From a bacterium (GTDB lineage Bacteria; Zhuqueibacterota; Zhuqueibacteria; Residuimicrobiales; Residuimicrobiaceae), in contig DAOLSP010000018.1 in NCBI GenBank assembly GCA_035419245.1, positions 130 through 64,129 of the forward strand: DNA of 64,000 nt, written 5' to 3'. Of the stretch, positions 4,851-22,880 are shown piece by piece (the stretch's first letter is position 1; each line of letters opens with the position of its first letter). The notes beneath the pieces were generated by a model. The model was given only the letters and a program-made list of their open reading frames with translations, made no database searches and had not been told where the DNA came from. The translations under genes and the position numbers were made by a program.

Positions 4851-7115
4851 ATGCCTCCTGAAGATGCTGCCACGGCAAAAGAATGGGAACTGCGCGACTA
4901 TCTCGATCTTGCCCTCCGGCGCAAAACGGTGATTCTTATAGCCTTCATCCTGACCTTTCTGATCACGGCGGCCTATCAGCTTACGCGGACGCCGGTCTAC
5001 AGCGCCTTCACCTCATTTATCATCGACGAGTCCGCCAGCAGCTCCGGCGTCGGCTCGGAGCGCTATAATCCCTATGCCTACTGGATGGAACGGGGCAAAC
5101 CGATCGAATACTACCAGGCGATCATGGGGAGCCAGGTCTATCAGGTCAAAATCAGGGAGCGGGCCGGCCGCGATGCCGATCTCCTTGGCACGCCCGGCGT
5201 CACCCGTGAGCAGATCGACCGCGCTATCGCCAGCATCAGCCTGGGGATGGATGAAGAATCCAAGTTGATGACCATCTCCGTGCAGGCGTTCCATCCGCTC
5301 GTGGCCTTTAAAGTGGCGCAGATCGCCACCGATGTCTTCCGCGAGCGCAACCAGGAGATCGATGTCGAAAGCGCCCAGGACGTAGTGCGCTTCATCGACA
5401 AACAGCGCCAGGAGGCCCAGGACCGCCTCGAGGAAGCGGAGCGCGCCCTGCAGCAGTACAGCGGCGCCGGCCAGGTGGTCTTTATCGGCGACGACGGCGG
5501 CATGATGAGCAAGGTCGCCCAGGTGGAGTCCATCCTGGAACAGGCCGAAACCGAGCGCCGCCTGGCGGAGAGCAATTACGCTTCCTACACCATGCAGCTG
5601 GAGGCTGCGGGAAAACAAGGCAGCCTGCAGTCGGCCGAATCGTTCCCCGAGGTGGCCGACCTGCGGAAACGCCTCGATCAGCTCGAGGACCAGCGCAATG
5701 CCCTGGCGGTCGCGCCTCAGGCGGACAGCCTTGCCGCGGCGGAACTGGACCGCAAGATCGATAGCGTCAAGGCCGAGCTGCGCCGCGCTATCCTCGCCCA
5801 TTCGACCGAGGCGATGCCGACCGAAGACCGGAAGACCGATGAGATGCGCTCGATGCTGACGCAGAAAGTGGTTGCCGAGCAGATCAACCTCAGCTCGACC
5901 CGCAACCGCGAGCGCTTTTATAACAACCTGCTCGAGGAGTACCGCCGCCAGAGTCCGGAGCGGCTCGAAAAGACGATGGAGCTGGCGCGGCTGCGCCGCA
6001 CCCAGGCGGTCCACCAGAATCTTCTGAATTATCTCGTCGAGCGTCATGAAGAGGCCAAGATCAAGGCGGCGACCGGCGCCGGCGGCCTCCGTATTGTCAA
6101 TCCGGCGGCCCTGCCCGAGCGGCCGAACTCTCGCAATCTGCCGCGCACCCTGCTGATCGGAGCGATGCTGGGCCTGGGGCTGGGATTCGGTCTCGCCATG
6201 CTGCAGGAGTATCTCGACCAGACCGTGCGCACGCGGCAGGATCTCGAGCGGCTCACGGGGGTGCAGGTTGTCGGCCAGATCCCGCTGGCCATCAAACTGA
6301 ACGGCAACAACGGCCACACGCCCCGCACCGGCAGGGTCCGAGCCATGCTCGAAAAGCAGAGCAAAAAGCGGATGGATGGCCAGGGGGAAACGCCCTATTA
6401 TCCCCTGATCAACAAATATGATCCGCATGCACCCTTTGCCGAGGCTTTCCGCAGCCTGCGCACGGATCTGCAATTCTTCAGCATCGACAAGCCGCTCAAC
6501 AAGCTGCTGGTCACCAGCTCGATCCCCGGCGAGGGCAAGACCCTGGTGACCGCCAATCTGGCCATCTCCCATGCGGAGCTGGGCCACAAGGTGGTGATCC
6601 TGGATGCTGATATCCGCAAGCCCAAGCAGCCCACGGTCTTCGGCGTCGATCGCAAGCCGGGTTTCACCGATTATTTTATGGATCTGGTGCCTTACGAGAG
6701 CATTGTCCGCCATCTGCCGGTGCGCGGCCTCGATCTGATCCCCTCGGGCACCGTCCCGCCCAATGTCGGTGAGGTGCTCAACAGCCAAAAGATGGCCGAT
6801 CTGGTCGAACGGCTGGAGGCGGAATACGATTTTGTCCTGGTCGATGCGCCGCCGGTGCTCAGCATCAGTGATGCCAAGGCGCTCTCGCGTATCGTCGAGA
6901 ACCTGCTCCTTGTTTTCCGTTTCGCCAAAACCGAAAAGCATTATGTGCGCGAGGTGGTGGCCAATCTGCGAAACATCAAAGCCACGATTATCGGCTTTGT
7001 CTTCAACGGCATCGAGCTGGGCAGTGGCAAGGGGTATTACAAATACTACTATTACTCCGAGTACCGGGAAAAACTCGACACGCCGCGGGTTGTAGAATCG
7101 GCGCAGGTGAACTGA
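4851..7115 (+). CDS. Polysaccharide co-polymerase / BY-type tyrosine autokinase (Wzc/GumC/EpsG-like chain-length determinant with C-terminal kinase domain).
   Basis: The architecture is an N-terminal TM, a long coiled-coil periplasmic region, a second TM (LLIGAMLGLGLGFGLAML), then a cytoplasmic P-loop domain. Motifs are Walker A SSIPGEGKTLVTANLA, A' VVILDADIRKP, B FVLVDAPP and a C-terminal tyrosine cluster YYKYYYYSEY. Confidence 0.85.
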   Translation: MPPEDAATAKEWELRDYLDLALRRKTVILIAFILTFLITAAYQLTRTPVYSAFTSFIIDESASSSGVGSERYNPYAYWMERGKPIEYYQAIMGSQVYQVKIRERAGRDADLLGTPGVTREQIDRAIASISLGMDEESKLMTISVQAFHPLVAFKVAQIATDVFRERNQEIDVESAQDVVRFIDKQRQEAQDRLEEAERALQQYSGAGQVVFIGDDGGMMSKVAQVESILEQAETERRLAESNYASYTMQLEAAGKQGSLQSAESFPEVADLRKRLDQLEDQRNALAVAPQADSLAAAELDRKIDSVKAELRRAILAHSTEAMPTEDRKTDEMRSMLTQKVVAEQINLSSTRNRERFYNNLLEEYRRQSPERLEKTMELARLRRTQAVHQNLLNYLVERHEEAKIKAATGAGGLRIVNPAALPERPNSRNLPRTLLIGAMLGLGLGFGLAMLQEYLDQTVRTRQDLERLTGVQVVGQIPLAIKLNGNNGHTPRTGRVRAMLEKQSKKRMDGQGETPYYPLINKYDPHAPFAEAFRSLRTDLQFFSIDKPLNKLLVTSSIPGEGKTLVTANLAISHAELGHKVVILDADIRKPKQPTVFGVDRKPGFTDYFMDLVPYESIVRHLPVRGLDLIPSGTVPPNVGEVLNSQKMADLVERLEAEYDFVLVDAPPVLSISDAKALSRIVENLLLVFRFAKTEKHYVREVVANLRNIKATIIGFVFNGIELGSGKGYYKYYYYSEYREKLDTPRVVESAQVN

Positions 7116-8041
7116 TGGTGGAGCACTGCCGCTGGTATTCTATCGGAGATATTACGCTGCAGGTCGAGAGCGATCTGCCTTTTTCTTCCAATACTTTCAG
7201 TGATAAACTCGAGCTCTTTCGCATAGCTTCACCCGGTCCGGACGTGGTGACCGTGCGCCACCATTTCGGTCTGCCGGATATGGCCGGTTGGGATCTCAGC
7301 CGGGAGAAATACCGCCGCGAGCCCTGGGCGATCTACCAGACGGATAAGGGATGGATTTACCTGGGGATTCTGCCGCAGGGATTCGGAGAAAAGCTGTGGA
7401 AGGTGGTGGTATTTAGTCCGGAGCACTCGCAGGCCGATATCTATCATCCGGATGAGTTGGCGTTTGTCCAGGGCGGCGCAACTTCGTTGACCCTGTTTCC
7501 TTCGGATCAGATTTTGGTGGCGCGGCTGCTGGCTGACCGTTCCGGATGTTACCTGCATTCAGCCGGGGCAATTCTGGACGGCCATGGAATGCTCTTTGTC
7601 GGCCACTCCGAGGCGGGCAAATCGACGACCACGCAAATGCTGATCGATGCCGGGGCGCGCGGAGATCTGGCGGCGGAGATCCTCTGCGATGACCGCAACA
7701 TCGTACGGCGGTTTGATGACGGCTGGCGGGCTTATGGTTCCTGGAGTCATGGTGATATTCCTGTGGTCTCCGCCGCCTTGGCGCCGCTGCGGGCAATCTG
7801 TTTTATTGAAAAGTCGGCCAAGAACAGTTTGACGCCGTTGACCGACCGGCAGGAGATCATCCGGCGATTACTCGCCTGCGTGATCAAGCCGTTCGTCACC
7901 GCGGAGTGGTGGGAGAAAACCATCGATGTGGTGGCGCAGCTGGCAGCGGAAGCCAGGTTTTTTCTCATGCGTTTTGACAAGAGCGGTAAAATCGTCAGTG
8001 ATCTGGTCAGGATAGCTCGTTCATCAGAGCAGAACGGCTGA
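7115..8041 (+). CDS. HPr-kinase/phosphorylase-related P-loop protein (HprK-like kinase, copy 1), of the kind found in peptide-maturation neighbourhoods.
   Basis: P-loop FVGHSEAGKSTTTQMLIDAGA followed by ILCDDRNIVRR, matching HprK C-domain GxSGxGKS and the DD motif. Its ATG overlaps the Wzc stop (TGATG at 7113-7117). Paralog of 24493..25389. Confidence 0.7.
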   Translation: MVEHCRWYSIGDITLQVESDLPFSSNTFSDKLELFRIASPGPDVVTVRHHFGLPDMAGWDLSREKYRREPWAIYQTDKGWIYLGILPQGFGEKLWKVVVFSPEHSQADIYHPDELAFVQGGATSLTLFPSDQILVARLLADRSGCYLHSAGAILDGHGMLFVGHSEAGKSTTTQMLIDAGARGDLAAEILCDDRNIVRRFDDGWRAYGSWSHGDIPVVSAALAPLRAICFIEKSAKNSLTPLTDRQEIIRRLLACVIKPFVTAEWWEKTIDVVAQLAAEARFFLMRFDKSGKIVSDLVRIARSSEQNG

Positions 8042-8097
8042 ATTTTCCAGAAACGAAAGTTGGATCAGACCAGATTCGGGAGGGAATTTCTTAAATC

Positions 8098-9453
8098 ATG
8101 TCGTATGTTCGACGATTGTACCCTCATGAATTCCATGCCTGTCACAAGGAGCCGCTGCTCGAGCATCTTGATCTCGAGTTGACTGAACGCTGCAACAACG
8201 CCTGCATCCACTGCTGTATCAATCAGCCCGAGCACGACGCAGAATTGGCGGCCCGGGAGATGGATACGGCGTTTGTCAAGTATCTGTTGAGGCAGGCAGC
8301 TGATTTAGGTGCGATTTCTGTTCGCTTTACCGGCGGAGAGCCTTTATTGCGCAGTGATTTCACCGAGCTCTATCTCTTCGCCAGACGTTTGGGGATGCAG
8401 GTGACGCTCTTTACCAACGGCCGGCTTATCACTCCGGAACTGGCGCAGCTGCTGGCGATCATTCCGCCCGGCAAGCCGGTGGAGGTGACGGTCTATGGCA
8501 TGCACCCGGAATCCTACGACGCCGTGGCTGCCTGTCGAGGCGCTTTCGCGGAATTTTGGCGCGGCATCGGCCTGTTGCAAGAGTATGGCATTCGTTTCAC
8601 GGTCAAACAGAGTCTGCTGCCGCCCAACCGGGGCGAGAGAGCGGAATTCGAAACCTGGGCCGCGACGCTGCCGGAAATGAAACAGCTGTCCGGATACAGC
8701 ATGAATTTCGAGCTGCGCGGCCGCCGCGATCATCCGGCCAAAAACCGGCTCATCGAATCGTTCCGTCTCACGCCGGAGGAGACGGTGGCCCTGCTGGCGG
8801 AGCGTCCGGGATATATCGATGAGATGCGCCAGTTCTGCAGCAAATTCATGGCTCCCCCAGGAGAACTGGTTTTTCAGTGCGGTGCAGGCAAGGGCGTCAT
8901 GGTGGATGCTTATGGCAAAGCCCAGATGTGTATGGGGCTGCGCCACCCGGATTATGTCTACGATTTGTACCAAACCGCTCAAGCGGAGGCTGCTGGCATA
9001 TCACCACTGAAATTTGCATTGACACATGTTTTTCCTGAATGGCGCGAAATGAAGGCAGCCCACCCGGAGTATCTGAGCCGTTGCGCCCGTTGTTTTCTCA
9101 AGGGGCTGTGCGAACAGTGTCCCGCGCGTTCATGGCAGGAGCATGGTACGCTGGATACGCCGGTTGAGTATCTTTGCAATGTCGCTCATGCACAGGCTCG
9201 GCACCTGGGCCTCCTTGCAGCTGGCGAAAAAGCCTGGGAAGTAAAAAACTGGCGCGAGCGCATCGCCCGGTTCAGCAGCAGAGAAGCAGGTAAAGTTTTC
9301 AAAATGGAACTTAATGAAAAAAGGATAAATGATGGAAACCGCTCTCAATTTGAACAGCATCTGTACGCCGTCGGAAGATATCGTGGCGCGGGAGATCGAA
9401 GGCGAGTTGATCATCATCCCTCTTGCCGCCGGAATCGGCGATATGGAGGATGA
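8098..9453 (+). CDS. Radical SAM / SPASM-domain peptide-modifying enzyme (copy 1).
   Basis: rSAM motif LTERCNNACIHCC (CxxxCxxC), GGEPLL, and C-terminal SPASM cysteines (FQCGAGKGVMVDAYGKAQMC ... CARCFLKGLCEQCPARSW ... YLCNVAHAQA). An RBS GGGAGGGAA lies upstream. The last ~42 aa are an Arg-rich tail that overlaps the PqqD gene; see the A6-run finding. Confidence 0.9.
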   Translation: MSYVRRLYPHEFHACHKEPLLEHLDLELTERCNNACIHCCINQPEHDAELAAREMDTAFVKYLLRQAADLGAISVRFTGGEPLLRSDFTELYLFARRLGMQVTLFTNGRLITPELAQLLAIIPPGKPVEVTVYGMHPESYDAVAACRGAFAEFWRGIGLLQEYGIRFTVKQSLLPPNRGERAEFETWAATLPEMKQLSGYSMNFELRGRRDHPAKNRLIESFRLTPEETVALLAERPGYIDEMRQFCSKFMAPPGELVFQCGAGKGVMVDAYGKAQMCMGLRHPDYVYDLYQTAQAEAAGISPLKFALTHVFPEWREMKAAHPEYLSRCARCFLKGLCEQCPARSWQEHGTLDTPVEYLCNVAHAQARHLGLLAAGEKAWEVKNWRERIARFSSREAGKVFKMELNEKRINDGNRSQFEQHLYAVGRYRGAGDRRRVDHHPSCRRNRRYGG

Positions 9454-9637
9454 GCTATATACCCTGAACGAAACCGGCAAGGTGATCTGGGGCCGCATGG
9501 ATGGGAGTGCAACGCTCGGGCAGATCGCAGCAGCATTGGCCGATGAGTACAATGCGCCCTTGAATGAGATCGAGCAGGACGTGTTGGGATTGGTCAACGA
9601 AATGGTTCGACGGAAAATTATCCATGCAAAATCATAA
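9329..9637 (+). CDS. PqqD-family peptide chaperone (RiPP recognition element, RRE).
   Basis: 102 aa: EIEGELIIIP...LNETGKVIWGRMDGSATLGQIAAALADEYNAPLNEIEQDVLGLVNEMVRRKII, which matches the PqqD consensus LN.TA..IW.L.DG.RT..EI...L...Y......IE.DV..FL..L. Confidence 0.85.
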   Translation: MMETALNLNSICTPSEDIVAREIEGELIIIPLAAGIGDMEDELYTLNETGKVIWGRMDGSATLGQIAAALADEYNAPLNEIEQDVLGLVNEMVRRKIIHAKS

Positions 9638-9723
9638 ATCATGAGTTTTAGTTTTAATGTCTAATTCATGCTGGAAATGATCCGGCGTAATCACTCTTTC
9701 AATCTTAGCGGAGGAAAGCCAAG

Positions 9724-9897
9724 ATGAAAACCAATGCAAATCAGTGGAAAAAGCCGGAATTGCTCGTTCTGACTCGCAGTAACCCGGAAGAGGCTGTGTT
9801 GACCGGATGTAAAAATGTGACTATTAATGGCCCTAAGTCCGGACAGAAATACTGTCAGGGGCCAGTAGCCCAGTGTACGAACGTAGCTGGCAGTTGA
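9724..9897 (+). CDS. Precursor peptide (57 aa) with PqqA-like leader and three-Cys core: MKTNANQWKKPELLVLTRSNPEEAVLTGCKNVTINGPKSGQKYCQGPVAQCTNVAGS. Not in the ORF track because it is under 60 aa.
   Basis: Strong RBS GCGGAGGAAAGCCAAGATG. It lies immediately downstream of PqqD and the rSAM gene. The leader WKKPEL resembles the PqqA WKKPAF. A second copy with the same leader sits beside the paralogous rSAM at 23063..23245. Cys at positions 29, 44 and 51. Confidence 0.75.
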   Translation: MKTNANQWKKPELLVLTRSNPEEAVLTGCKNVTINGPKSGQKYCQGPVAQCTNVAGS

Positions 9898-10125
9898 AAA
9901 CGGCTGAGAAGGATCACTCAAGCACCTGGTTACTGATAAAGTAACAGGACTTCCAAAATCCTGAGAAGATATCATGGATTATTCAGGGTTCAGGAGCATG
10001 CGGAAGCAGTGTGCACATTTGTAAAGCAACCCCCGCTTCCAATGGAGAAAATAAAAGCGACGATGTCATCGTGATCCATAAACACCCCCAGCGTAATCTG
10101 ATCGTCTGAATGGAGGACGAATTGA

Positions 10126-10662
10126 ATGCGCCTGGGCAAGATTGCAAAGGGGATGCTGCGCCGGTTGCAGGACAGGGCGATCTATCGTTCTCTTTGGCGA
10201 AAGCTTGCCCCTCAACTCACGCTCCGAGAGGCATCAGACAGAGATTTGCTCCTCGTTCATCAATGGCTTAACGGCACCAGGGATTTCGAGCTGCAGCGCT
10301 CCCCGAACTTGACCGAATGGGTGGCTCTTTATCGTGGTCACATTGTTGGCTTTGTCCAACTGATTCGTTATCCGCAGGATAATGAACTTTATCAGGGGTA
10401 TTGGCTTTTCAGCATGAATGTCAAACCGCTCCGGCGCGGAATGGGAATTGGCAGTGCATTAACACGAACCGTAATAAATCGTGCTTGCGATGAAAGTGCG
10501 CCTTTTCTGGATTTGCTGGTTTTCGAGGATAATCTGCGCGCAATCAGGCTCTACGCCAAAATGGGATTTGAGCCCTGCATAATCCCGGCGCTAGAGCCCT
10601 CACTTGAAAAGGAACGGGAAGTATATGGCCGACGCCGGCTGGTGATGCGGAAAGTATTCTGA
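10126..10662 (+). CDS. GNAT-family N-acetyltransferase.
   Basis: QGYWLFSMNVKPLRRGMGIGSALTRTVINRA...RAIRLYAKMGFEP, i.e. GNAT motifs A and B. RBS GGAGGA upstream. Confidence 0.75.
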   Translation: MRLGKIAKGMLRRLQDRAIYRSLWRKLAPQLTLREASDRDLLLVHQWLNGTRDFELQRSPNLTEWVALYRGHIVGFVQLIRYPQDNELYQGYWLFSMNVKPLRRGMGIGSALTRTVINRACDESAPFLDLLVFEDNLRAIRLYAKMGFEPCIIPALEPSLEKEREVYGRRRLVMRKVF

Positions 10663-10875
10663 TTTTCAGAACCAGACAAACCACGTTAAAATATTACTTT
10701 GGAAAGAGCATTTTTGAATTTGAAGCAGGTGGAACTGGATTTTCGTTCGGCTAAGGTGACATTTCAGGGCACATGCTCCGAGGTGCGCGAAGTGTGTTAA
10801 GCGTGATGCTGCCGCAATGATTGGGTTGTCGGCATAACAGCGGAAGAATACGCGAACGGATTATTCCAGGCTCAA

Positions 10876-11493
10876 GTGATCTGTTCCTTGACCAACAAAG
10901 AATGTAAAAGGTCGGATGAAACCTGCCGTTACCGCATCTATCGTCTCAGCAAACGCACCGATAATAGCTGTGTCTATCTTGAGGACAATCGCTGCTCCAA
11001 TTATGAAATACGGCCGCAGGTATGCCGCGATTTCCACTGCCAGACAGGTTGGAAGCTCGCTTCGGTCTTTCCCGATTCCAGCGTATTGGGAGATGGAGGC
11101 TCGACGCTCACCCTGGACCGTTTTCTCGACCAGATCACGGATGACGCAGTATTTGTGCCGCATCCGCTTATCAAGGTACATGCTGTTTTTTACCTGCGGC
11201 CCAAACAGTCTATTATTTTTGTTAAAGAGATGGTTGGCGGTTGCGGCAAATTCAACAGCAGAGATGATCTATATTCTCCGCTGCTCGATGATGACAAGTT
11301 GATGCTGTTGATCGGCCTTTTTACATACAAGGAAACTTTGGGGCAGCTTTTCACGAGATTTACAGACCAGGCGGCTGTTGCCTTGAGTCGCAGAGAGTTT
11401 CTCACACTGGTTTGGCTGCTCAATAAACATAATATCGTCATTGATTCGCGCAATTTCAGGGGCATGCTGGCCGGCATGGGCGGAATTGAGTAA
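10876..11493 (+). CDS. YkgJ/UPF0153-type cysteine-cluster (putative Fe-S or zinc) protein.
   Basis: CxxC...C pattern NKECKRSDETC ... SCVYLEDNRCSNYEIRPQVCRDFHC, typical of YkgJ-family CxxCxxCC domains. Apparent GTG start, so start uncertain. Confidence 0.5.
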   Translation: MICSLTNKECKRSDETCRYRIYRLSKRTDNSCVYLEDNRCSNYEIRPQVCRDFHCQTGWKLASVFPDSSVLGDGGSTLTLDRFLDQITDDAVFVPHPLIKVHAVFYLRPKQSIIFVKEMVGGCGKFNSRDDLYSPLLDDDKLMLLIGLFTYKETLGQLFTRFTDQAAVALSRREFLTLVWLLNKHNIVIDSRNFRGMLAGMGGIE

Positions 11494-11566
11494 CGAAGGC
11501 TGTCATATCACGTTCATCAGTGATCCTTCACGGCAAACCCTGCCCAACCCGGAATTCGCTGAACTG

Positions 11567-11992
11567 ATGGCGGCGGTTCTGGCCAAGGGCACTCTTTTCA
11601 GGTTTCAGGCCAGCGGCAGCAGTATGGCCCCCTTCATCAGAGGGGGGGATGTACTTACCTTTGCGCCAATCACCAAACCTCCTGGTCTGGGGGAAATAGC
11701 AGCTTTTCGTCAGCCTGTAACCGGGCGGCTGATGGTGCACCGGATCATCCGCCGGCGTCAAGGTCTTTTTCTTATCAAAGGTGATAACAGCTGCCATCAT
11801 GATGGTTGGGTGCCCTCAGAGAATATTCTTGGCCGCGTTAGCCGCATTGAACATCGGGAGCGAACGGTTCGGTTGGGCCTGGGCTGGGAGCGCATTCCGA
11901 TCGCAGCACTCTCACGGCTCGGCCTACTGTGGCCCCTCTCACAGGCAATGCGCCGGCTGTTGCGGCCGGTTTATAAAAGGTTTTTTGCATGA
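11567..11992 (+). CDS. Small soluble S24/S26-family serine peptidase (LexA/signal-peptidase fold). Candidate leader peptidase.
   Basis: FRFQASGSSMAPFIRGGDVLTF matches the S26/S24 nucleophile box (GxSMxP...GD). No TM segment. The ORF track starts it at a TTG at 11441, the internal Met at 11567 is more plausible, and the gene ends in ATGA overlap with the downstream rSAM gene. Confidence 0.6.
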   Translation: MAAVLAKGTLFRFQASGSSMAPFIRGGDVLTFAPITKPPGLGEIAAFRQPVTGRLMVHRIIRRRQGLFLIKGDNSCHHDGWVPSENILGRVSRIEHRERTVRLGLGWERIPIAALSRLGLLWPLSQAMRRLLRPVYKRFFA

Positions 11993-13113
11993 CCCATACG
12001 TCATCGATAGAGATTCAGGATTTCGCTCTTTGGCAAAAACTCGAGGCCAAACGCGCCCTCTTCAGCTTTGACCTGGACCTGACCGCCCGCTGCAACCTCA
12101 ACTGCCGCCACTGCTATATCAACCTGCCGGCGGGAGATGAAGCGGCCCGGGCGAAGGAACTCTCCCTGGAGGAGATCGGCCGCATCGCCGATCAGGCGAT
12201 CGAACTCGGCGCGCTTTGGTGCCTGCTCACCGGCGGCGAGCCGCTGCTGCGGCCTGATTTCCCCGACATCTACCTCATGCTCAAGCGCAAGGGGCTGCTG
12301 ATCTCGCTCTTTACCAATGCGACCCTGGTGCGGCCGGAGCACATCGCGCTGTTCACAAAGTACCCGCCACGCGATATCGAGGTGACCATCTATGGGGCCT
12401 CAGCCGCAACCTATGAGCGCGTCACCCGCCGGCCAGGCGCCTTTGCACAGTTCATCACCGGCCTCGACGCCCTTTTCGCGGCCGGCATCAGGGTGCGCCT
12501 TAAGGCGATGGCCCTGCGCTCCAATCTTGAGGATATGGAGGCGATCGCCGCCTTCGGCCGCAGCCGCACCAAGGATTACTATCGCTTCGATCCCCAGCTG
12601 CACCTGCGCTATGACCGCGATCCGGTGCGCAACGAGGAGATCAGGGCGGAGCGGCTCACCCCCGCAGATGTGACGGACATGGAGAGGGCCGACGCTGAGC
12701 GCTTCGGTTCGTTGCTGAAGGGCTGCGATGAGCTGATAAACGAAGCTTTCACCCATGCCGGCTGCGACCATCTTTTTCACTGCGGCGCCGGCAACGGCAG
12801 CTGCAGCATCGGCTATGACGGAACCTTCCGCCTCTGCCAGTCGCTCTGGGCGCCGGGCACCACGGCCAACTTGCGCGAGGTGCCGCTGCGTCAGGCCTGG
12901 GAGGAACTGGTGCCGCGCGTGCGCGACCTGCGTTCCCGGGATCCGCAGTTCCTGCAAAGCTGCCGTGCATGTGCGATCGTGAATCTCTGTCTGTGGTGCC
13001 CGGCCCACGCCCATCTCGAGACCGGGCGGATGGACGGAGAAACCCCCTTCTTTTGCGCCGTCGCTCATGCCAGAGCGCAAGCGCTACAAAGCGCAATATT
13101 TGACGAAAAGTGA
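11989..13113 (+). CDS. Radical SAM / SPASM-domain enzyme (copy 3, paralog of 8098..9453 and 23288..24496).
   Basis: LTARCNLNCRHCYINLP (CxxxCxxC), GGEPLL, SPASM Cys cluster FHCGAGNGSCSIGYDGTFRLC...CRACAIVNLCLWCPAHAH...FFCAVAHARA. Colinear similarity to the other two rSAMs (FDLDLTARCN vs LDLELTERCN, ERLTPAD vs FRLTPEE). Confidence 0.9.
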   Translation: MTHTSSIEIQDFALWQKLEAKRALFSFDLDLTARCNLNCRHCYINLPAGDEAARAKELSLEEIGRIADQAIELGALWCLLTGGEPLLRPDFPDIYLMLKRKGLLISLFTNATLVRPEHIALFTKYPPRDIEVTIYGASAATYERVTRRPGAFAQFITGLDALFAAGIRVRLKAMALRSNLEDMEAIAAFGRSRTKDYYRFDPQLHLRYDRDPVRNEEIRAERLTPADVTDMERADAERFGSLLKGCDELINEAFTHAGCDHLFHCGAGNGSCSIGYDGTFRLCQSLWAPGTTANLREVPLRQAWEELVPRVRDLRSRDPQFLQSCRACAIVNLCLWCPAHAHLETGRMDGETPFFCAVAHARAQALQSAIFDEK

Positions 13114-13291
13114 ATTATTTACTTGCTTTTCGCTGGTTTTTTTTCTAATTTCAGTTAATAGGGGAAGTGTGGGGAAGTACCTCTTTACGGTTATGCTGCT
13201 GTTGTACCGCATCCTTTGCCCGCCATCCTGACCGTCCAACCCCCCTTTTAACGCCGCACTGCATCGTGTCCGCAACCTTGTCAGGACCTTC

Positions 13292-14545
13292 ATGACGATC
13301 CGACGCATCCTTGGCTTGTTCTTTGTCATCATGGCCGGAGCCGCACCGGCGCAGAGCGGCGAGTTCGGTGATCTCTATGCCCGCCTCGCGCGTCACGGTT
13401 TCGAGAATCTGCGCATCGCCGCCACGGCCGACAGCGGTCTGGCCATCGCCTTTGAGAACCGTGTTTACCGCCACGATCTCAAGGCCGTCGGCGAGATGCT
13501 AAAGCTGGCCGGCCAGGCCGATTCAACCTGGCAGCGCCTGTACATCATCCCCTGCAGCCGCGGCGTCGCACGCGGTCAGATTATGGTGCTGCGCGCCGCC
13601 TACCGCGCCTTCATGGACGGCTCGATGGATGCCCCGGCTTTCAGCCGGACGCTGGTCATCGGCGAAGCGACGCAACAGCCGGAAGCGGCGGTGCAGGCCT
13701 GGCAGAACCGCTCCTTTTTCAAGCTGGATCTCAATGTGACCTTCGGCCACCAGATCCAGCTTGGGCAGTATGACGACCGCGTCAAGCTCTACGGCCAGGT
13801 CCAGCCCGGACTGCGCAGCCAGCTATGGCACGGCACCCTGGTCCAGGCGGAGGCCTTTATCCCGGTCTTTGACGAGATCGGCGTCTATGATACCGGCGCC
13901 CGGCTCGGCCGGCTCAGCGTCAGTCAGCTCTTACGCCTGCCGCGCGACAGTTATCTGGCCCTTCAGGGCGGGATCTTTATGCCGGAGCGCTGGGGCTTCT
14001 CGGGTGAGACCGCAAAATTCTGGCTGGGCCGCAGGGTCCTGACCGGCATCAAATTGGACTATACCGGCTTTTTCTACCATAGCGAGGGCACGTGGTATTA
14101 CTCGAACATGGACAGCCTGACCTATAAAGTCTATGCGCAGTATTTTCTCCCCAGCCTGGATATGATGGTGGGGATCGATTACAGCAAATATCTGATCGGC
14201 GACAAGGGACCCTGCTTCACCCTGCGCCGGACGTTCTCTGAAACCGATATCGAACTGTATTATGCAGTCACCAATCTCGACCGCTTCGGCGGCGTGCGCT
14301 TCCGTTTTCCCCTGCCGACGCAGCAGCGGATGCGTCCCGCCCGGGTGCGCCTGACCTGGCCCAGCCAGTACGGCATGAGCTACCAGGCCACCAGCGAAGC
14401 GACGCGCTACGAGGGGGTGCTGCAAACCGGGCTCAGCGTGGATCCGGGTTTTGCTATCAGCGAGTTCGTCAAACCGCTCACTCCGGCGCATGTCCTGGCC
14501 AATATCAAGGGGTGGCGCGAGGGGGATGACACGGCCAATGAATGA
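13292..14545 (+). CDS. Secreted protein with signal peptide. Putative outer-membrane/exopolysaccharide-associated protein of unknown function.
   Basis: Signal peptide MTIRRILGLFFVIMAGAAPAQS. Aromatic/Gly-rich, 417 aa. No catalytic motifs recognised. Confidence 0.4.
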   Translation: MTIRRILGLFFVIMAGAAPAQSGEFGDLYARLARHGFENLRIAATADSGLAIAFENRVYRHDLKAVGEMLKLAGQADSTWQRLYIIPCSRGVARGQIMVLRAAYRAFMDGSMDAPAFSRTLVIGEATQQPEAAVQAWQNRSFFKLDLNVTFGHQIQLGQYDDRVKLYGQVQPGLRSQLWHGTLVQAEAFIPVFDEIGVYDTGARLGRLSVSQLLRLPRDSYLALQGGIFMPERWGFSGETAKFWLGRRVLTGIKLDYTGFFYHSEGTWYYSNMDSLTYKVYAQYFLPSLDMMVGIDYSKYLIGDKGPCFTLRRTFSETDIELYYAVTNLDRFGGVRFRFPLPTQQRMRPARVRLTWPSQYGMSYQATSEATRYEGVLQTGLSVDPGFAISEFVKPLTPAHVLANIKGWREGDDTANE

Positions 14546-14579
14546 TACCGATATCAACCTAACAGGGAGGAAACAAACC

Positions 14580-16211
14580 ATGAAACAATGGCCAAAAATC
14601 GGGTGGGTACTGGCACTGTTGCTCATGGTGCTGGCCATCGGCTGCGAACAGGTCTCCGATCCCGGAACCGTCGCACAATTCCAGACGGCGAGCAACGCGA
14701 CTTTGTTCAGCACGGCGACCGGCGTGAGCAAGACGACCTTTTATTCCTATGAAAACGTCCTGCTCACTTTCGAGGATCTCTATCCCAATGAACAGACCGA
14801 CGTGCAGATCATTCGCAAAAGCGACGGCCATATGATCAAGCGTATGCTGGTCATAACCGACGGCACCGGCGCCATCCGCGATCTGCCGATCTGGTTTTTC
14901 AACAACTACCGCAAACCGGGCGAACTCGGCGGCGAACATAACTTTTTCGTTCACCTCGAGCAGCCGGGCGTGGACCGGCCCTGGAAAATCTTCACCATTC
15001 TCTTCCACAGCCAGGAAACGTTGCCCTCCGATCCGCAGTTGCGGGTGACGGATGCGGCCGGCAATTTTGCGGGCGGTGCATTATTTGTCGGCAACCCGGT
15101 CTATGTCGCCGGCAGCAAGATCGGCGTCAAAGCCACCGTACAGCTGCTGATGGTGGCCGACAAGAGCATCTATACCACGGGCGATGTGCTCACCGACCTG
15201 AGCGACAATGGCATCGAGACGACCAAGACCGAGAAGAACGGTCTGCTCGGGCCGGTCAAAATTTGCAACGCCGCGGCGGTCGGAGCGTATGATATCGTCG
15301 CCGATACTGCGCCCTTTGGCGTCTACAATGCGGGCGACGTCGTCAGCGATGCCGCTTTCCCCGGCCTCCTGGTTCAGAACCATTCGGGTGCAAGCGATAT
15401 CATCCAGGACATCGCCTGCGATGCGACCGGTTTTTACAAGAACCAGTTCGATTCGCTCGAAATCGTCTATGCCAAGGTGAACGCGCTCACCCGGCCCGGT
15501 TATGTGCCGAGCGAGTTCGTCAATCTTTTCATCACGCCGCACAAACCGGTCTGGAACAAGGGGGACGCCCTCTTCAGCATGCGCACCGTCGGCACCTTTG
15601 AGATGCCGGTGCAGTGCATCTGGAACGGATATGCCGGCTATCTGCCCCTGATCCGCATGCACGGTGGCAGCCTGGCCAGTGACGACGCCCCCATCAGAAT
15701 GTGGCCCGGCGAATATGATGTCATCCTGGACGTCGACCGCAACTATACTTATGATCCCGGCATCGATATCCTCGATGGCGGCGCGGCGCCCGGTTTCACT
15801 GTGCCTGGCAAAGTCCCGCCCGTGCGCTTCGCCGTCACCGCCGATAATGATTTCCTTGGCCGTGAGGCCGGAAATCCGAACATCTGGGGTTATTTCCGCG
15901 ACCAGATCAGCACCAAGGTCTGGGGCGTGCTGGTGGATAAAGACGGCATTCCCATCAGCTCCATTCCGGTCAACTATGCCATCACCTCCGGTCCTGGCAG
16001 CCTGAGTGCCGCCTCGGCAGTCACCGGGCTCAACGGCGGCGCCTGGGTGGTCTTTTCGGGCGGCACGTATGGCGCCGGCACAGTGGTGCAGCTCACCTGC
16101 CGGGTGAACGATGTGGATTATACCAAGAGCATCCGCATTTTCCGCAAGATTCCGTTCAGCCACAATCAGGGCGTCATCGTGCACAATCAGGGCACGGTGA
16201 GTGGCAATTAG
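14580..16211 (+). CDS. Lipoprotein of unknown function.
   Basis: Lipobox MKQWPKIGWVLALLLMVLAIGC with RBS AGGGAGGAAAC upstream. The ORF track starts at 14451, but the Met at 14580 precedes the signal peptide. Confidence 0.5.
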   Translation: MKQWPKIGWVLALLLMVLAIGCEQVSDPGTVAQFQTASNATLFSTATGVSKTTFYSYENVLLTFEDLYPNEQTDVQIIRKSDGHMIKRMLVITDGTGAIRDLPIWFFNNYRKPGELGGEHNFFVHLEQPGVDRPWKIFTILFHSQETLPSDPQLRVTDAAGNFAGGALFVGNPVYVAGSKIGVKATVQLLMVADKSIYTTGDVLTDLSDNGIETTKTEKNGLLGPVKICNAAAVGAYDIVADTAPFGVYNAGDVVSDAAFPGLLVQNHSGASDIIQDIACDATGFYKNQFDSLEIVYAKVNALTRPGYVPSEFVNLFITPHKPVWNKGDALFSMRTVGTFEMPVQCIWNGYAGYLPLIRMHGGSLASDDAPIRMWPGEYDVILDVDRNYTYDPGIDILDGGAAPGFTVPGKVPPVRFAVTADNDFLGREAGNPNIWGYFRDQISTKVWGVLVDKDGIPISSIPVNYAITSGPGSLSAASAVTGLNGGAWVVFSGGTYGAGTVVQLTCRVNDVDYTKSIRIFRKIPFSHNQGVIVHNQGTVSGN

Positions 16212-17025
16212 GCCGGTCTTTTCGCCTGCCCCCGCCGGCGACAGGGCGAGGGCAGGCGATCAAGGCTGCAGCATGGTTGGCGCCGCCCGGCGTCCGGGCG
16301 GTGGCCGATGGCGTGTGATTTTATGGGTTGGTTTCCTCCTGCTCATAGCGCCCGGACTCTGTCCGGGCGTTCTTTTTGCCCAGAATGCCTCGGTCTTTGG
16401 TTACAGCGGATTGATGCTGGTCCCGGTGGCGGATCTTGCCCCGGATGGCGAGATCACCGCAGGGATCAGCCGCATCCCGATCCTCTATGCGAACTGGTTT
16501 CCCAACCGGCGAACGGTGATGTGGGGGCGGATCGGCTTTCTGCCCTTTCTCGAGGCGGGGGGGATGTTCGTTCGGCCGGATCATTACACCTGGGGCTTTG
16601 GTGACCGTTCGGTCTATCTCAAGCTGCAGATTCTGCGCGAGCACGGGCGCTGGCCGTCGCTGACGCTGGGCGCACAGGATTTTTTTGCCCTGAAGGCCTT
16701 GCATTGGGAGACCGCGACGGCGCAGCATTTCGGCGCGCTTTATCTGGTGGCTTCCAGGCATACGACCCTGCGCGGCGTGCCGCTGCATCTCCATCTCGGC
16801 TACGGGCCGGACTGGCTGGTGGCGCGCACCAAAATGCTCACCGGGCTTTTCGGCGGGGTGACCTGGTCGCCGCAGCGGATGGTGACGCTGCTGGCCGAGT
16901 ATGATGCGAAGTCGCTCAACGCCGGCGTGCGGTTGCACCCGGCGCGGTTCCTGCAGCTGCAGTGGGCCTGGTGGCAGCTGCGGGTGGTGACGGCGACCCT
17001 GGCGCTCTCGGTTCAGCTTCAGTAA
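16201..17025 (+). CDS. Putative secreted/outer-membrane protein of unknown function (start uncertain; possible signal peptide beginning near 16273).
   Basis: Hydrophobic segment ILWVGFLLLIAPGLCPGVLFAQ followed by GYSGLMLVPVADLAPDGEIT. High coding potential in this frame. No family recognised. Confidence 0.4.
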   Translation: MAIRPVFSPAPAGDRARAGDQGCSMVGAARRPGGGRWRVILWVGFLLLIAPGLCPGVLFAQNASVFGYSGLMLVPVADLAPDGEITAGISRIPILYANWFPNRRTVMWGRIGFLPFLEAGGMFVRPDHYTWGFGDRSVYLKLQILREHGRWPSLTLGAQDFFALKALHWETATAQHFGALYLVASRHTTLRGVPLHLHLGYGPDWLVARTKMLTGLFGGVTWSPQRMVTLLAEYDAKSLNAGVRLHPARFLQLQWAWWQLRVVTATLALSVQLQ

Positions 17026-17144: not shown

Positions 17145-18983
17145 ATGACTCCACGATTGCGCTCCCTTCGCAAGCTCACGCCCCGTCAGCTGCGCGAGGA
17201 ATTACTCCCCAACATCCTGAGATCGATCCGGCTGGTCTGGCAGGCCTCGCCCTCCCTCTTTATGATCAGCACCCTGCTGCTGGTGCTACAGAGCGTACTG
17301 CCGCTGGGCATACTCTACACCAGTAAGCTGATCCTCGACGGAGTCGCCGCGGCCCTGAAACCGGGCACAGCCGCATCGACGCCGCCCTCGCTGCTTTTTC
17401 TTGCCACGCTGGTGGCGGGACTGGTCTTTCTCCAGGTGATGGCCAGCAGCTTGCACGACTGGCTGCAGCAACACCAGTCCGCCCTGGTGCAGGAGAGCAT
17501 CATGGAGCGGCTGCATGCAAAATCGGTGGAGATCGATTTCGCCTACTACGAAAATCCCGAGTTTTTCGATACCCTGCATCAGGCGCAGCATCAGGCGATC
17601 TACCGGCCGTCGCAGCTGGTTGGCCGCCTCCAGAACATCATCCAGCAGAGTCTGACCCTGGCCGGACTGGTCGGCCTGCTCTTCCTCTTTCATTGGTCGA
17701 TTCCGCTGCTGTTGCTGCTGACCCTCCTGCCCGCCCTGCTGTTCCGCCTCCATTTTGCAGATGTGCTCTTCGAGTGGCGCCGCAAGAGCAGCAATCTGGA
17801 ACGCAAAAGCTACCATTATCACTGGCTGCTCACCGACAAGACGTGGGCCAAGGAGGTGCGTGTTCTCGCGGTGGGGCGTCTGTTCCGCCGCCGTTACCGC
17901 GCCATCCAGCGGCGGCTGCGCGTTGAGCAGTTCCGTATCAACGGCCGGCAGACCCGCGGCACGCTGATCGCCCAGCTGCTGGCGACAGCCGTGGCATACG
18001 GATTTTACATTGTGCTGATCGGCCGAACCCTGGCGGGGGCCATCACCCTCGGCAGCCTGGTGATGTACTTTCAAGCCTTCCAGCAGGCTTTGAATGCCTT
18101 GCGGACGCTTTTCACCGGGATCGGGGATATTTACGAGGACACCCGGTTTGTCTCCCAGCTCTTTGCCTTTTTCGCTCTGACTCCGGGTGTGGCGCGGAGT
18201 GTGCCGGTGCGTCCGATGCCGGCGGTCATCCGGCACGGGTTGACGATCGATGGCGTCTCCTTTCGCTACCCGGCCAGCGGGCGCTGGGCGCTGCAGTCGG
18301 TCTCGTTCACGGCCGCCCCGGGCGAACGCATCGCCCTGGCCGGGGCCAACGGCTCAGGGAAGAGCACCTTGATGAAGCTCATCTGCCGGCTCTACGACCC
18401 CACCGAGGGGCGGATTCTGATCGACGGTATCGACATCCGCGAGTTCGAGCAGGTTGAGTGGTGGCGCCGCCTGGCGGTGATGTTTCAGGATTTTGAGGAA
18501 TACAACCTCAGCGCTCGTGAGAATATCTGGCTGGGGGACATCCGTTTGCCGCTACGGGACGGGCGGATCGAGACGGCAGCCGACCTCTCGGGCGCCAGCA
18601 GAGTGATCGCCGGGCTGCCGCAGGGCTATGAGACCATGTTGGGTAAATGGTTCGATGAGGGGGAGGAGCTGAGCAAGGGGGAGTGGCAGCGGATTGCGGT
18701 GGCGCGGGCCTTTCTGCGCGACGCTCCGATCATGATCTTTGACGAGCCCACCAGCGCCCTCGACGCCCGCAACGAGTACGAGATGCTCAGTGCCTGGATG
18801 GAGCGGGTGCGCGGCCGGGTGGCGATTCTGATCAGCCACCGCATCTCAACCCTGCAGAGTGCGGACCGGATCATCATGATGCACCAGGGGCGTATTGCGG
18901 AGGTCGGGAACCACGCGCAGCTCTGGTCCGCCGGCGGTCCCTATGCGGAGTTGTTCAACCAGCCGGTGCCGGGGCGGCCCTGA
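17145..18983 (+). CDS. ABC exporter, fused transmembrane and ATP-binding domains (MsbA/multidrug/lipid-exporter type).
   Basis: Six predicted TM helices, then Walker A GANGSGKSTL, signature LSKGEWQRIAVARA, Walker B IMIFDEPTSALD. Confidence 0.85.
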   Translation: MTPRLRSLRKLTPRQLREELLPNILRSIRLVWQASPSLFMISTLLLVLQSVLPLGILYTSKLILDGVAAALKPGTAASTPPSLLFLATLVAGLVFLQVMASSLHDWLQQHQSALVQESIMERLHAKSVEIDFAYYENPEFFDTLHQAQHQAIYRPSQLVGRLQNIIQQSLTLAGLVGLLFLFHWSIPLLLLLTLLPALLFRLHFADVLFEWRRKSSNLERKSYHYHWLLTDKTWAKEVRVLAVGRLFRRRYRAIQRRLRVEQFRINGRQTRGTLIAQLLATAVAYGFYIVLIGRTLAGAITLGSLVMYFQAFQQALNALRTLFTGIGDIYEDTRFVSQLFAFFALTPGVARSVPVRPMPAVIRHGLTIDGVSFRYPASGRWALQSVSFTAAPGERIALAGANGSGKSTLMKLICRLYDPTEGRILIDGIDIREFEQVEWWRRLAVMFQDFEEYNLSARENIWLGDIRLPLRDGRIETAADLSGASRVIAGLPQGYETMLGKWFDEGEELSKGEWQRIAVARAFLRDAPIMIFDEPTSALDARNEYEMLSAWMERVRGRVAILISHRISTLQSADRIIMMHQGRIAEVGNHAQLWSAGGPYAELFNQPVPGRP

Positions 18984-19099: not shown

Positions 19100-20738
19100 A
19101 TGGCAACATTCCGAAAAATATTGAATGATCGGGAAAAAGAGGGTGAAACCGGTTATTTTTCCGTTTTGCAGAACATGTCGGAAGAGGCCCATAAATCCTG
19201 GCTGGGTCAGACCGGGCAGGTTTGGGGATCCTATAATGGCGTTCCTCATCTCACCAATGTCGAACGCAATCTCGACCATCTCGCCGATGATGGACTCAAA
19301 TCCTCTTTCAGCAGCACAGAAATTTTTGTCCTCCTGGCGGCGGCACTGCTGCATGATATCGGCAAGCTCACGGTCAAGGATCCGGAAAAGGAAGCGCACT
19401 ACATCCAGTCCTGCACCAAGATATTAAAAGACTGGTATTATCTCAGGATTCCCGATCTCGAATGCGCGCACTGGATCGCCGTTCTTACCTGTGCGCATGG
19501 CTGGCCCTCCCCGGTCCCTCCTCCGGATTGCCCGGCCCTGGCCGGGGATCTTTGTGCTTTATGCTGCAGCGGCGGCGGCGTCCCCGGGTTCAGCGAGCTG
19601 GATTCCGACCCGGTGGCCCTGGACGGTCCGGTGCGTCTACGCTGGCTCGCTGCGCTGCTGCGCATGGCCGATGAAGTTGACAATCAGGTCGAACGCGCTG
19701 TGCCGGATTGGCTGCGGGACAGCCTGCCCGGGGAGGACCCTGAGCTCTCCTGGCGCAGGCACATTCACGCGGTGCTTTTTGACCATGCCGGGCAGTGCAT
19801 CAAATTGTGCACGCTCTCCCTTGATCCGAAGCGGTGGAATAACAAGCAGCTGTCGTTTCTCGGCCAGGCGGTCGGCAAAATCGATCTGGTGCTGCCTCTT
19901 TTATTCCCTCGAGCAGGAGCCGGAGTGGATCATCGAGCATCTCAAGAGTCATCATTACTTCAATGAAAATAACGCGCTTACCATTGCGCAAAATGTGCTC
20001 GACCTGGAAGACTCCGCACACGCCTATTTCGCTTTGAAATCCATCGCCAACAAGCTGCTCCTGCCCAAACTGACCCCAAGAGCGGAAGGCTATCGCAATC
20101 TGCCGCCGGAATCGCTCTTTCAGCGCCGTTATTCTGAACTGGAAAAATCGATCAACTGGCTGACGAATAAGGGGATCGTGCCCTTCTTTTTTATCGACAG
20201 CCTCTCCGCCTTCGCCCCGACGCCTCTGACCCGCAACCAGATCCACCGGCTGTTCACGCTCTTCCGCTCCGCTAACATTCCTTTGCTGGTCACGCTCGAA
20301 CGATTGCGGCATTGGGCGATCAAGGAGGAAGAGATCCCGTTCAATGTGGCGCGCTATCTGGCGGATATCGTCATCAAGCTCGATGAAGCGCACCGCAATG
20401 ATTATTATTACCAGACCATCGAAGTGACCAAGACGCGCTACAACCGCAGGATTCTCGGCCAGCATCTCCTCAAGCTCAAATCGGCGGAACAGAGCGCGAC
20501 CAAGTCGTTTGATCCCAGGCTGGGGATCGTGATCTACCCCTCGATTCACAACCATCTGGTACACAGCAGAAGCACTCCTAACGAGAAGCGCCTGCTCAGG
20601 TTGGATATCCGGGATCGCCTGTTGCCTCTGGGGATCGGGCCCACGGATGCTGACAAGGGTAGGGGGGAGGACGCAGCGGCTCAGGAGCGTGAAACCAGTC
20701 CGGCGCCGCCGGAAGGGGTGCCGGGGCCGGCCGCTTAG
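19100..20738 (+). pseudogene. HD-motif N-terminal domain plus degenerate KaiC/RecA-like C-terminal domain protein, interrupted by a frameshift at the T-run 19899-19902 (ORFs 19100..19966 and 19491..20738).
   Basis: N-terminus LLAAALLHDIGK (HD motif). After the shift, ...GIVPFFFIDSLSAF... resembles the KaiC/RecA fold but no Walker A is seen. Deleting one T from CCTCTTTTATTCC gives a continuous ...KIDLVLPLYSLEQEPEWIIEHLK. Confidence 0.45.
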
Positions 20739-22850: not shown

Positions 22851-22880
22851 CCACTACCTTTAATAAAGCAGTCAAGGGTA

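Follow-up and report, generated by a model that had tools for sequence, protein, structure and literature searches.

The question raised by this locus is whether a 57-codon open reading frame (ORF) lying among genes for radical S-adenosylmethionine (rSAM) enzymes is a real gene and, if it is, what becomes of its product. The window, by which we mean the whole 64,000-nucleotide stretch analyzed here (positions 130 to 64,129 of contig DAOLSP010000018.1, assembly GCA_035419245.1, from a bacterium of the Residuimicrobiaceae), carries this ORF at 9724-9897 on the + strand. A first-pass annotation had proposed that it encodes the precursor of a peptide made by ribosomes and modified after translation (a RiPP) for the adjacent rSAM and PqqD-like genes. 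Overall, conservation and context indicate that the ORF is a genuine gene encoding the substrate peptide of the surrounding enzyme cassette, and we consider it quite probable that the peptide is a RiPP precursor matured by this co-directional cassette. The components that carry the argument are given below, where locus counts refer to the 120 genome loci listed in our survey. Note that these loci are fixed 8-kb blocks, which makes the gene-presence counts lower bounds.

9710-9715, + strand: Shine-Dalgarno sequence GGAGGA, 8 nt upstream of the ATG at 9724 (by sequence inspection)
9724-9897, + strand: precursor peptide gene, 57 amino acids (aa) plus stop (ORF, family alignments, product called publicly)
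9724-9807, + strand: leader, residues 1-28, with invariant W8, P11, V15, R18, P21, E22, E23 and L26 (from invariant columns; putative boundary before Cys29)
9808-9894, + strand: core, residues 29-57, with C29-K30, C44, C51 and C-terminal S57 (Cys spacings 15 and 7; six residues after the last Cys)
7115-8041, + strand: ScmC-like P-loop protein, 308 aa, HprK/PEPCK fold, Walker A GHSEAGKST; proposed kinase (55 of 120 loci)
8098-9453, + strand: rSAM/SPASM enzyme 1 (rSAM1), C32-x3-C36-x2-C39 plus seven-Cys SPASM (Pfam Radical_SAM 1.5e-18; Cys conserved in 33 homologues; 66 of 120 loci)
9329-9637, + strand: PqqD-family RiPP recognition element (RRE), 102 aa (PF05402 1.2e-15; 57 of 120 loci)
11441-11992, + strand: S24/S26 (SipW/archaeal-type signal peptidase I-like) protein, proposed leader peptidase (TIGR02228 9.6e-9, PF00717 8.4e-6; 42 of 120 loci)
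11989-13113, + strand: rSAM/SPASM enzyme 2 (rSAM2), C35-x3-C39-x2-C42 plus seven-Cys SPASM (Radical_SAM 3.1e-23, SPASM 1.6e-4; Cys conserved in 32 homologues; 56 of 120 loci)

The + strand ORF opens with ATG at 9724 and ends with TGA at 9897, and its translation, MKTNANQWKKPELLVLTRSNPEEAVLTGCKNVTINGPKSGQKYCQGPVAQCTNVAGS, is exactly that given by the first-pass annotation, as is the strong ribosome-binding site. The 14 kb surrounding 9724-9897 is overlapped by 117 ORFs that are 40 aa or longer, and a 57-codon ORF is therefore unremarkable by itself; the case rests on conservation and context. A protein search with the 57-aa peptide returned 10 homologues, comprising the identical peptide (on nine contigs) and nine diverged peptides of 55-72 aa, all of them nameless. 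The identical product is predicted by public gene callers, likewise without a name, in at least eight independent assemblies, such as GCA_029547845.1 and several anaerobic-digester metagenomes. Anaerobic-digester samples in which the identical gene is present include JGI 3300010342, 3300009769 and 3300009676. The earlier description of this ORF as unannotated does not hold for public data. Relative to the closest diverged orthologue (locus L054) the gene shows 18 synonymous and 14 non-synonymous codon differences, with 10, 11 and 26 substitutions at sense codon positions 1, 2 and 3, respectively. The region around 9724-9897 matches no Rfam family, and neither a sigma-70-like promoter nor a + strand terminator was found around the small ORF. 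A hairpin at 9925-9948 (CCUGGUUACU...AGUAACAGG) begins 28 nt 3' of the peptide stop; it is without a U-tract and is not significant when compared with shuffled sequences (z = -1.3).

We explored the distribution of the peptide using a degenerate DNA pattern built from ten invariant leader codons only, which holds 44 bits and is expected to give about 0.07 chance matches in 596 Gb. Scanned over one genome per species, this pattern yielded 137 exact matches at no fewer than 120 genome loci, and all locus counts in the text are among those listed. Small ORFs with a core of 20-50 aa, at least three Cys and a Ser or Thr end account for 126 of the 137 matches. A profile search of 1.84 billion representatives returned 2,878 proteins at E <= 0.001, each standing for a cluster at 50 % identity, and 339 at E <= 1e-10, nearly all of which are 52-70 aa in length. 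The loci span about twenty phylum-level groups (taxa as labelled in the records) that include Chloroflexota, 'Deltaproteobacteria'/Desulfobacterota, Acidobacteriota, Actinomycetota, NC10, Omnitrophota, Chlorobiaceae, Planctomycetota, KSB1, Spirochaetota and Bacillota, as well as one metagenome-assembled genome (MAG) of Methanomicrobiales and one of Hodarchaeota (a methanogen and an Asgard archaeon). No Pfam or NCBIfam model covers the precursor family. In the searchable literature, a scope outside of which most subscription journals fall and which leaves a prior description possible, we found neither this family nor an HprK-like protein paired with rSAM maturases. These sequence matches indicate that the peptide belongs to a large precursor family, with members in thousands of anaerobic bacteria, most of them uncultured, and also in a few archaea.

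An alignment of 15 members showed that W8, P11, V15, R18, P21, E22, E23, L26, C29, K30, C44, C51 and S57 are invariant, while the stretches between the Cys residues are hypervariable. The leader is near-invariant (W-x-x-P-x-L-x-V-L-x-R-x-x-P-E-E-x-V-L-x-x), and the core is hypervariable on a fixed scaffold (C-K-x13-17-C-x5-8-[C-x2-3-]C-x5-Ser-COOH). This anatomy was quantitated in 135 unique members, using features that were not built into the search pattern. Specifically, the C-terminal residue is Ser in 117 members and Thr in eight (together 125 of 135), and the last Cys is followed by exactly six residues (C-x5-[S/T]-COOH) in 106 of them. Four core Cys are present in 82 members and three in 43 (three or four in 125 of 135), the first two Cys are most commonly spaced by 15-16, and core positions 8-10 form a Gly/Pro-rich patch. 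The window peptide, with spacings of 15 and 7 followed by six residues, exhibits one of the two commonest three-Cys patterns. Position -1 before the invariant C-K is occupied by a small residue, in most cases Ala, Gly, Thr, Val or Ser, and the invariant Leu stands at -3. Several paralogous precursors can occur in one cluster, with four observed in L004, three in L007 and six in L089.

The genomic context of the peptide is also conserved: throughout the roughly twenty phylum-level groups it co-occurs with five types of protein, namely the ScmC-like P-loop protein, rSAM1, the PqqD RRE, the SipW-type S26 peptidase and rSAM2. In the window all neighbor genes around the small ORF are on the + strand, and in independent metagenomes the homologues are always found among ScmC (Pfam PF27840), Radical_SAM, PqqD, Peptidase_S24 and Radical_SAM genes, the order of which is variable. 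At least one core gene is present in 87 of the 120 listed loci, and at least four of the five core types in 50. Of the 33 loci that have no core gene, 25 either place the peptide within 2.5 kb of the end of the block or contig, or are pieces shorter than 5 kb. The S24/S26 peptidase retains its G-x-S-M-x-P, H-R and G-D boxes across 29 homologues; public callers place its start at 11486 rather than at 11441. Conservation of the ORF and its leader in syntenic loci of relatives, a check that the first-pass annotation had called for, was thus found when the check was run, and its proposal of a RiPP-type precursor for the adjacent rSAM and PqqD genes is borne out by a peptide that is conserved, syntenic, multi-copy in some clusters and hypervariable in its core.

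Support for recognition of the leader by the PqqD protein comes from natural gene fusions. In Omnitrophota MAGs a PqqD domain, a Lys/Glu-rich linker of about 65 aa and the precursor are encoded in a single ORF (L097 4472-5140; L137 237-848). Two of these PqqD-precursor fusions, P0278 (222 aa) and P0279 (203 aa), are from one MAG, and the partial P0280, which belongs to another assembly by its locus-tag prefix, has an identical linker and precursor layout after the last PqqD residues. Fusion is classical evidence that two parts work together, and recognition of the leader by the adjacent PqqD protein, plausible in itself, gains independent support from it. Longer matches from the profile search (P0134, P0254 and others) were also considered as additional PqqD fusions and were rejected as over-extended gene calls or tandem precursors. 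Note that P0278 is annotated at NCBI only as 'PqqD family protein', with the RiPP substrate hidden in that annotation. In the window, the rSAM1 ORF runs about 46 codons beyond its homologous end (in L004 the protein has ...RERIANFSNRKSET as its C-terminus) and shares 125 nt with the full-length PqqD ORF. The conserved PqqD N-terminus (PSEDIVAREIEGE) is encoded within this overlap, as a result of which public callers cut PqqD to 64 aa or omit it. In regards to the leader motif itself, YxxPxL in lasso-peptide leaders is the motif recognized by RRE proteins (PMC10368454), and by analogy W-x-x-P-x-L is better read as a general aromatic-x-x-Pro-x-Leu leader motif of PqqD-type RRE systems.

The rSAM enzymes provide a clue to the role of the core Cys residues. 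Homologues of both rSAM1 and rSAM2 retain the CxxxCxxC motif and the seven SPASM Cys. Against curated models the window enzymes score far under the cutoffs (AlbA 41-56 bits versus 850, StsB 67-76 versus 625; an L030 homologue scores 57 versus 340 for PapB), and against PDB entries only the SAM core is matched (PqqE, BlsE, SkfB, MoaA). When analyzing the 50 loci with a clear ScmC, we observed that in 22 of them ScmC forms the C-terminal half of a fusion of about 650-720 aa, the N-terminal half of which is a third rSAM/SPASM domain (for example L022 370-2532, and also L020, L021, L036, L050, L085 and L089). Where ScmC is fused to this third rSAM, 24 of 26 peptides have a four-Cys core and one has a three-Cys core; where ScmC stands alone, eight of 30 peptides have four Cys and 21 have three (Fisher's exact p = 1.7e-7 on the three- and four-Cys counts). 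The number of rSAM domains is therefore the number of core Cys minus one, which argues that the Cys are sites of rSAM action with one site per enzyme. On this co-variation it is very likely that the core Cys are the sites of rSAM action, and the earlier suggestion that Cys29, Cys44 and Cys51 are rSAM substrates is strengthened by it as well as by the invariance of these residues.

The first-pass annotation had overlooked both the invariant C-terminal Ser and the HprK-like protein encoded upstream of rSAM1. Pfam PF27840 (ScmC) is recorded for this protein and its relatives, which form more than 762 homologue clusters and, wherever they are named, are called 'hypothetical protein'. The best NCBIfam match of the window protein is TIGR04249 at 27.9 bits (cutoff 125), followed by HprK_rel_B at E = 0.0028 and 16.8 bits (cutoff 200). 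Among 40 diverse relatives the best TIGR04249 match has E = 1.1e-13, with the two known bit scores (27.9 and 31.3) far under 125. All 40 match the NCBIfam HprK-related kinase B (best 1e-8), 25 match HPr(Ser) kinase/phosphatase (best 3e-5) and 19 match Pfam Hpr_kinase_C, in each case below cutoff. An AlphaFold2 model built from these 40 members has a predicted local distance difference test (pLDDT) score of 90 and a predicted template modelling score of 0.87. When searched against the PDB with Foldseek, the top folds are ATP-dependent phosphoenolpyruvate carboxykinase (PEPCK; E = 1e-7) and HPr kinase/phosphatase (4e-5 to 5e-4, probability about 1.0), families that share one fold. The Walker A motif G163-x4-G168-K169-x-T171 and a D192-D193-R194 motif are invariant or nearly so, and are presumably the counterparts of the HPr kinase/phosphatase P-loop and catalytic Asp region.

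A second, different ScmC-type cluster adjoins the first one in L004 (14026-16186, - strand) and shows a faint ScmC match. It encodes a 79-aa Cys-rich peptide with a Y-S-K-P-T-L leader (MPKKQYSKPTLVSLDD...), an S26-type peptidase and an NTP_transf_5 nucleotidyltransferase, an arrangement that is reminiscent of lasso clusters with a kinase and a nucleotidyltransferase.

How would the cassette act on the peptide? We propose that the stand-alone PqqD protein would bind the W-x-x-P-x-L...PEE-x-V-L leader and present the core to the enzymes. Each rSAM/SPASM enzyme would then act at one particular Cys, two enzymes serving three Cys and three enzymes serving four, and the product of this step would most likely be an intramolecular thioether (sacti- or ranthionine-type) bridge. 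By analogy with characterized maturases we give crosslinking of one Cys by each enzyme, with a thioether as the favored bond, an even chance. The ScmC-like protein may use ATP to phosphorylate the invariant C-terminal Ser or Thr, as HprK-like kinases do in paeninodin-type lasso peptides, where HprK homologues phosphorylate the C-terminal Ser on the linear precursor (PMC8498205). Phosphorylation of the terminal Ser by ScmC is a tentative proposal drawn from this analogy that we place somewhat short of an even chance. The S26-type peptidase would remove the leader, probably just before the invariant Cys-Lys, which in the window peptide would place the cut between Gly28 and Cys29, and in the lineage of the window a GNAT acetyltransferase may acetylate the product and a nearby ATP-binding cassette (ABC) exporter may secrete it. 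We infer that the GNAT and a CxxCxxCC-domain protein are lineage-specific accessories. With cores this variable and precursors in several copies, the product looks more like a secreted peptide of bioactive or signalling function than like a cofactor. Taken as a whole, the system could represent a new RiPP class, spread over about twenty phylum-level groups and encoded by a five-gene cassette, in which one rSAM crosslink is installed per dedicated enzyme on C-K...C...C-x5-Ser and the C-terminus is modified as well (as O-phospho-Ser or as a ring from Cys to the C-terminal residue); this full combination is possible, and on balance we lean against it.

Several other readings of the locus must be weighed against that of a RiPP precursor matured by the cassette. 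One concerns an ORF on the opposite strand, which the first-pass annotation had already taken to be spurious:

9691-9975, - strand: shadow ORF of 94 aa, codon-aligned with the sense frame; not a gene

This ORF is longer than the sense ORF, and the antisense strand is open across the full length of the peptide in 93 of the 137 family matches listed; an open, codon-aligned antisense frame (a -1 shadow) is an expected by-product of GC-rich codon usage. Sense position 3 corresponds to antisense position 1, where most of the substitutions relative to L054 fall, and selection therefore acts on the + strand ORF. Furthermore, the sense start, ribosome-binding site, stop and C-x5-S end are all conserved, every neighbor gene is on the + strand, and gene callers picked the antisense ORF in none of the eight assemblies that carry the 57-aa product. 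The earlier judgment thus holds, and there is next to no chance that the + strand ORF is the spurious one, with the antisense ORF or no gene at all as the real feature. It is improbable, too, that the peptide stays unmodified and works as a conserved Cys-rich protein, for instance an rSAM accessory that binds metal or Fe-S, with a 'leader' that serves as a lasting interaction domain. Such a protein would be in keeping with the three or four invariant Cys, which retain their spacing and often form CxxC, and with the permanent fusion to PqqD in Omnitrophota, but the loops between the Cys are hypervariable, the precursors are multi-copy, a dedicated signal-peptidase-type protease is conserved in the cassette, and the shift of Cys count with rSAM domain number fits a substrate better than a cofactor carrier. 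Largely refuted, and very improbable, is the reading of the peptide as PqqA-like, with a small redox cofactor (as for PQQ or mycofactocin) as its product and most of the sequence discarded. This reading draws on the resemblance of W-K-K-P-E-L to the PqqA segment W-K-K-P-A-F (a lead rather than a test) and on the PqqD homologue and PqqE-like rSAM/SPASM enzymes adjacent to the small ORF. However, the PqqA family was returned for none of 15 members at E <= 10, PqqE scores 57 bits versus a cutoff of 381, and pqqB and pqqC are not nearby. The core also has no Glu/Tyr pair and is hypervariable except for its Cys and terminal Ser, and several divergent precursors per cluster are typical of natural-product RiPPs and not of cofactors.

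A genuine precursor that undergoes a chemistry other than thioether formation plus Ser phosphorylation merits serious consideration, at less than an even chance. The last Cys might be linked to the C-terminal residue via its free carboxylate, the rSAM enzymes might install C-C or C-O crosslinks or epimerize residues, and ScmC might be an ATP-dependent chaperone or scaffold for the rSAMs, or might phosphorylate Ser for elimination and a lanthionine-like ring closure. The fixed C-x5-Ser-COOH spacing fits a ring closed onto the C-terminal residue, and PapB can couple an internal Cys to a C-terminal residue through its carboxylate (PMC12373016). It is also congruent with another chemistry that ScmC is often fused to an rSAM/SPASM domain and that the rSAMs match no characterized family. 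Conversely, the HprK/PEPCK fold with its invariant Walker A and D-D-R motifs favors real phosphotransfer, and there is no lyase or cyclase gene in the cassette.

Several observations weigh against a thioether-bridged, phosphorylated precursor matured by the cassette. Eight loci (L073, L086, L095, L099, L107, L119, L133 and L136) have no cassette gene within 2.5-4 kb of the precursor; in these, the precursor may be an orphan that is processed in trans, or the cassette may have diverged further. Every genome match is a MAG or an uncultured record. The AlphaFold2 model of fusion P0278 has a pLDDT of 58 with the leader below 50, probably owing to a shallow alignment, and gives no docking signal, and the leader cleavage site just before Cys29 is one that we infer from sequence. 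The rSAM matches are to the generic SAM core and far under every curated cutoff, and the type of bond is therefore not predictable. As for ScmC as a kinase, all of its sequence support is sub-threshold, and sequence searches of the PDB, with single sequences or a profile, return generic P-loop matches only. Its frequent fusion to an rSAM domain means that it could be an ATP-dependent partner or scaffold rather than a tailoring kinase. HprK-like RiPP kinases need not act at the C-terminus, as BsfK targets Ser3 (PMC10368454), and the peptide of the second ScmC-type cluster in L004 does not end in Ser.

In regards to the wider neighborhood, the other genes in this part of the window are as follows.

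888-2891, + strand: sugar transferase
4851-7115, + strand: Wzc-like chain-length/tyrosine-kinase protein (5 of 120 loci)
10126-10662, + strand: GNAT acetyltransferase, accessory (PF00583 6e-16; 9 of 120 loci)
10876-11493, + strand: CxxCxxCC-domain protein, putative lineage-specific accessory (PF03692 4.3e-4, below cutoff; 1 of 120 loci)
13292-14545, + strand: YjbH-like protein
14451-16211, + strand: protein with a weak Big_1 (Ig-like) domain match
16201-17025, + strand: YjbH-like protein
17145-18983, + strand: ABC exporter

In the lineage of the window the cassette lies within an exopolysaccharide export locus (sugar transferase, Wzc, YjbH-like, ABC exporter), the order of which is kept in L001-L003, L041 and L062. 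As the locus count indicates, a Wzc neighbor is rare outside of this lineage. The Wzc-like gene ends in a stop codon that shares nucleotides with the ScmC start codon (junction 7112-7118), which suggests translational coupling. Just 3' of the ABC exporter (19100-20738) there is a gene for an HD-CE domain protein (PF24391), and the overlapping ORF after it (19491-20738) has a weak KaiC-like ATPase match; the pair may form a small defence or signalling module. Farther along, a - strand segment (21957-25560) encodes an rSAM protein (23288-24496), an adjoining 355-aa ORF without a Pfam match (24493-25560) and a UPF0489 protein (21957-22850).

A new RiPP class of the kind outlined above would have consequences beyond the window. 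ScmC-type proteins would be the first HprK-like kinases, or ATP-dependent partners, to work with rSAM peptide maturases, which would give a role to the PF27840 proteins, and orphan cassettes of the SynChlorMet type, described below, would gain a substrate logic. rSAM RiPPs are a main source of new peptide chemistry, with most families coming from culturable Firmicutes and Proteobacteria, and orphan rSAM-RiPP families are not rare. The system is compact, with a 57-aa substrate and four or five enzymes, and has a natural variation series built in, namely three versus four Cys with two versus three rSAM enzymes and a fused versus a free PqqD. In regards to annotation, the PqqD genes at these loci are mis-called (truncated, or with the precursor fusion unnoticed), and a class of 53-70-aa genes is nameless.

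Comparison with known systems places the cassette near several of them. It shares with the PQQ pathway the N-terminal W-K-K-P, a PqqD homologue and PqqE-like rSAM/SPASM enzymes. The search for PqqA in the 15 members covered Pfam and NCBIfam at E <= 10, with HMMER filters dropping most matches above about 0.1, and the curated PqqA models are Pfam PF08042 and NCBIfam TIGR02107. PQQ arises from a conserved Glu and Tyr of the PqqA core, whereas the window core, CKNVTINGPKSGQKYCQGPVAQCTNVAGS, has no Glu and the family has no conserved Glu or Tyr column; PqqB and PqqC are likewise missing among the window neighbors. Membership in the PQQ system was rejected because a PqqA match, the Glu/Tyr pair, pqqB and pqqC are all missing, the core is hypervariable and precursors occur in several copies; the 'PqqA-like' label of the first-pass annotation is not supported.

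Paeninodin-type lasso systems (with the HprK-like kinases PadeK, ThcoK, SyanK and BsfK, plus the B1 RRE) are similar in that an HprK-fold protein adjoins a PqqD-type RRE, the leader has an aromatic-x-x-Pro-x-Leu motif, and the precursor ends in Ser, which is the target of the kinases there (PMC8498205, PMC10368454). They differ in that crosslinking would here be carried out by rSAM enzymes, with phosphorylation as a hypothesis. Lasso-peptide membership was rejected, as no gene from 4851 to 14545 has a lasso cyclase (asparagine-synthetase-like) or B2 protease domain. The resemblance to sacti- and ranthipeptide systems (AlbA, SkfB, CteB, PapB, StsB) lies in rSAM enzymes with a full SPASM domain, a PqqD-type RRE and a Cys-bearing core, and the window enzymes or their homologues match StsB, AlbA, PapB and SkfB over the SAM core. 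Unlike those systems, no maturase family cutoff is reached, the RRE is a separate protein, two or three dedicated rSAMs serve three or four Cys where a single enzyme would make several bridges, and an HprK-like protein and a signal-peptidase-type protease are core components. Neither the rSAM-RiPP compendium (PMC10288494) nor the RRE-Finder paper mentions a kinase.

The closest parallel is the SynChlorMet (SCM) cassette, which was defined in silico in NCBIfam/TIGRFAMs (ScmA TIGR04252, ScmC TIGR04249, PqqD-like ScmD TIGR04248, ScmE/ScmF TIGR04250/04251) and for which we found no paper in the searchable literature. In both cassettes a small peptide with Cys residues is encoded together with an HprK-like ScmC protein, a homologue of PqqD and a pair of rSAM/SPASM enzymes (7115-13113 in the window, and kept in relatives), and they have Chlorobiaceae, 'Deltaproteobacteria' and methanogens in common. 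Several important differences are also evident. The bit scores are far below the cutoffs (ScmC 27.9 versus 125, ScmD 20.9 versus 100, ScmE 64-77 versus 400, ScmF 85-94 versus 400), and the window-type cassette includes an S26-type peptidase as a conserved extra component and, frequently, a third rSAM in fusion with ScmC. The window peptide does not match ScmA (cutoff 35) at E <= 10, and the best of the 15 members reaches 11.7 bits over the core only. The Chlorobiaceae and Desulfobacteraceae loci were considered as true SynChlorMet cassettes and were rejected, with all scores far below cutoff. On these model scores, SynChlorMet is a sibling system with a different precursor family, and the window cassette is not a member of it. 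By its gene content, the latter appears to be a RiPP system of the rSAM/SPASM and RRE kind whose precursor family is undescribed and whose conserved set of enzymes is unusual.

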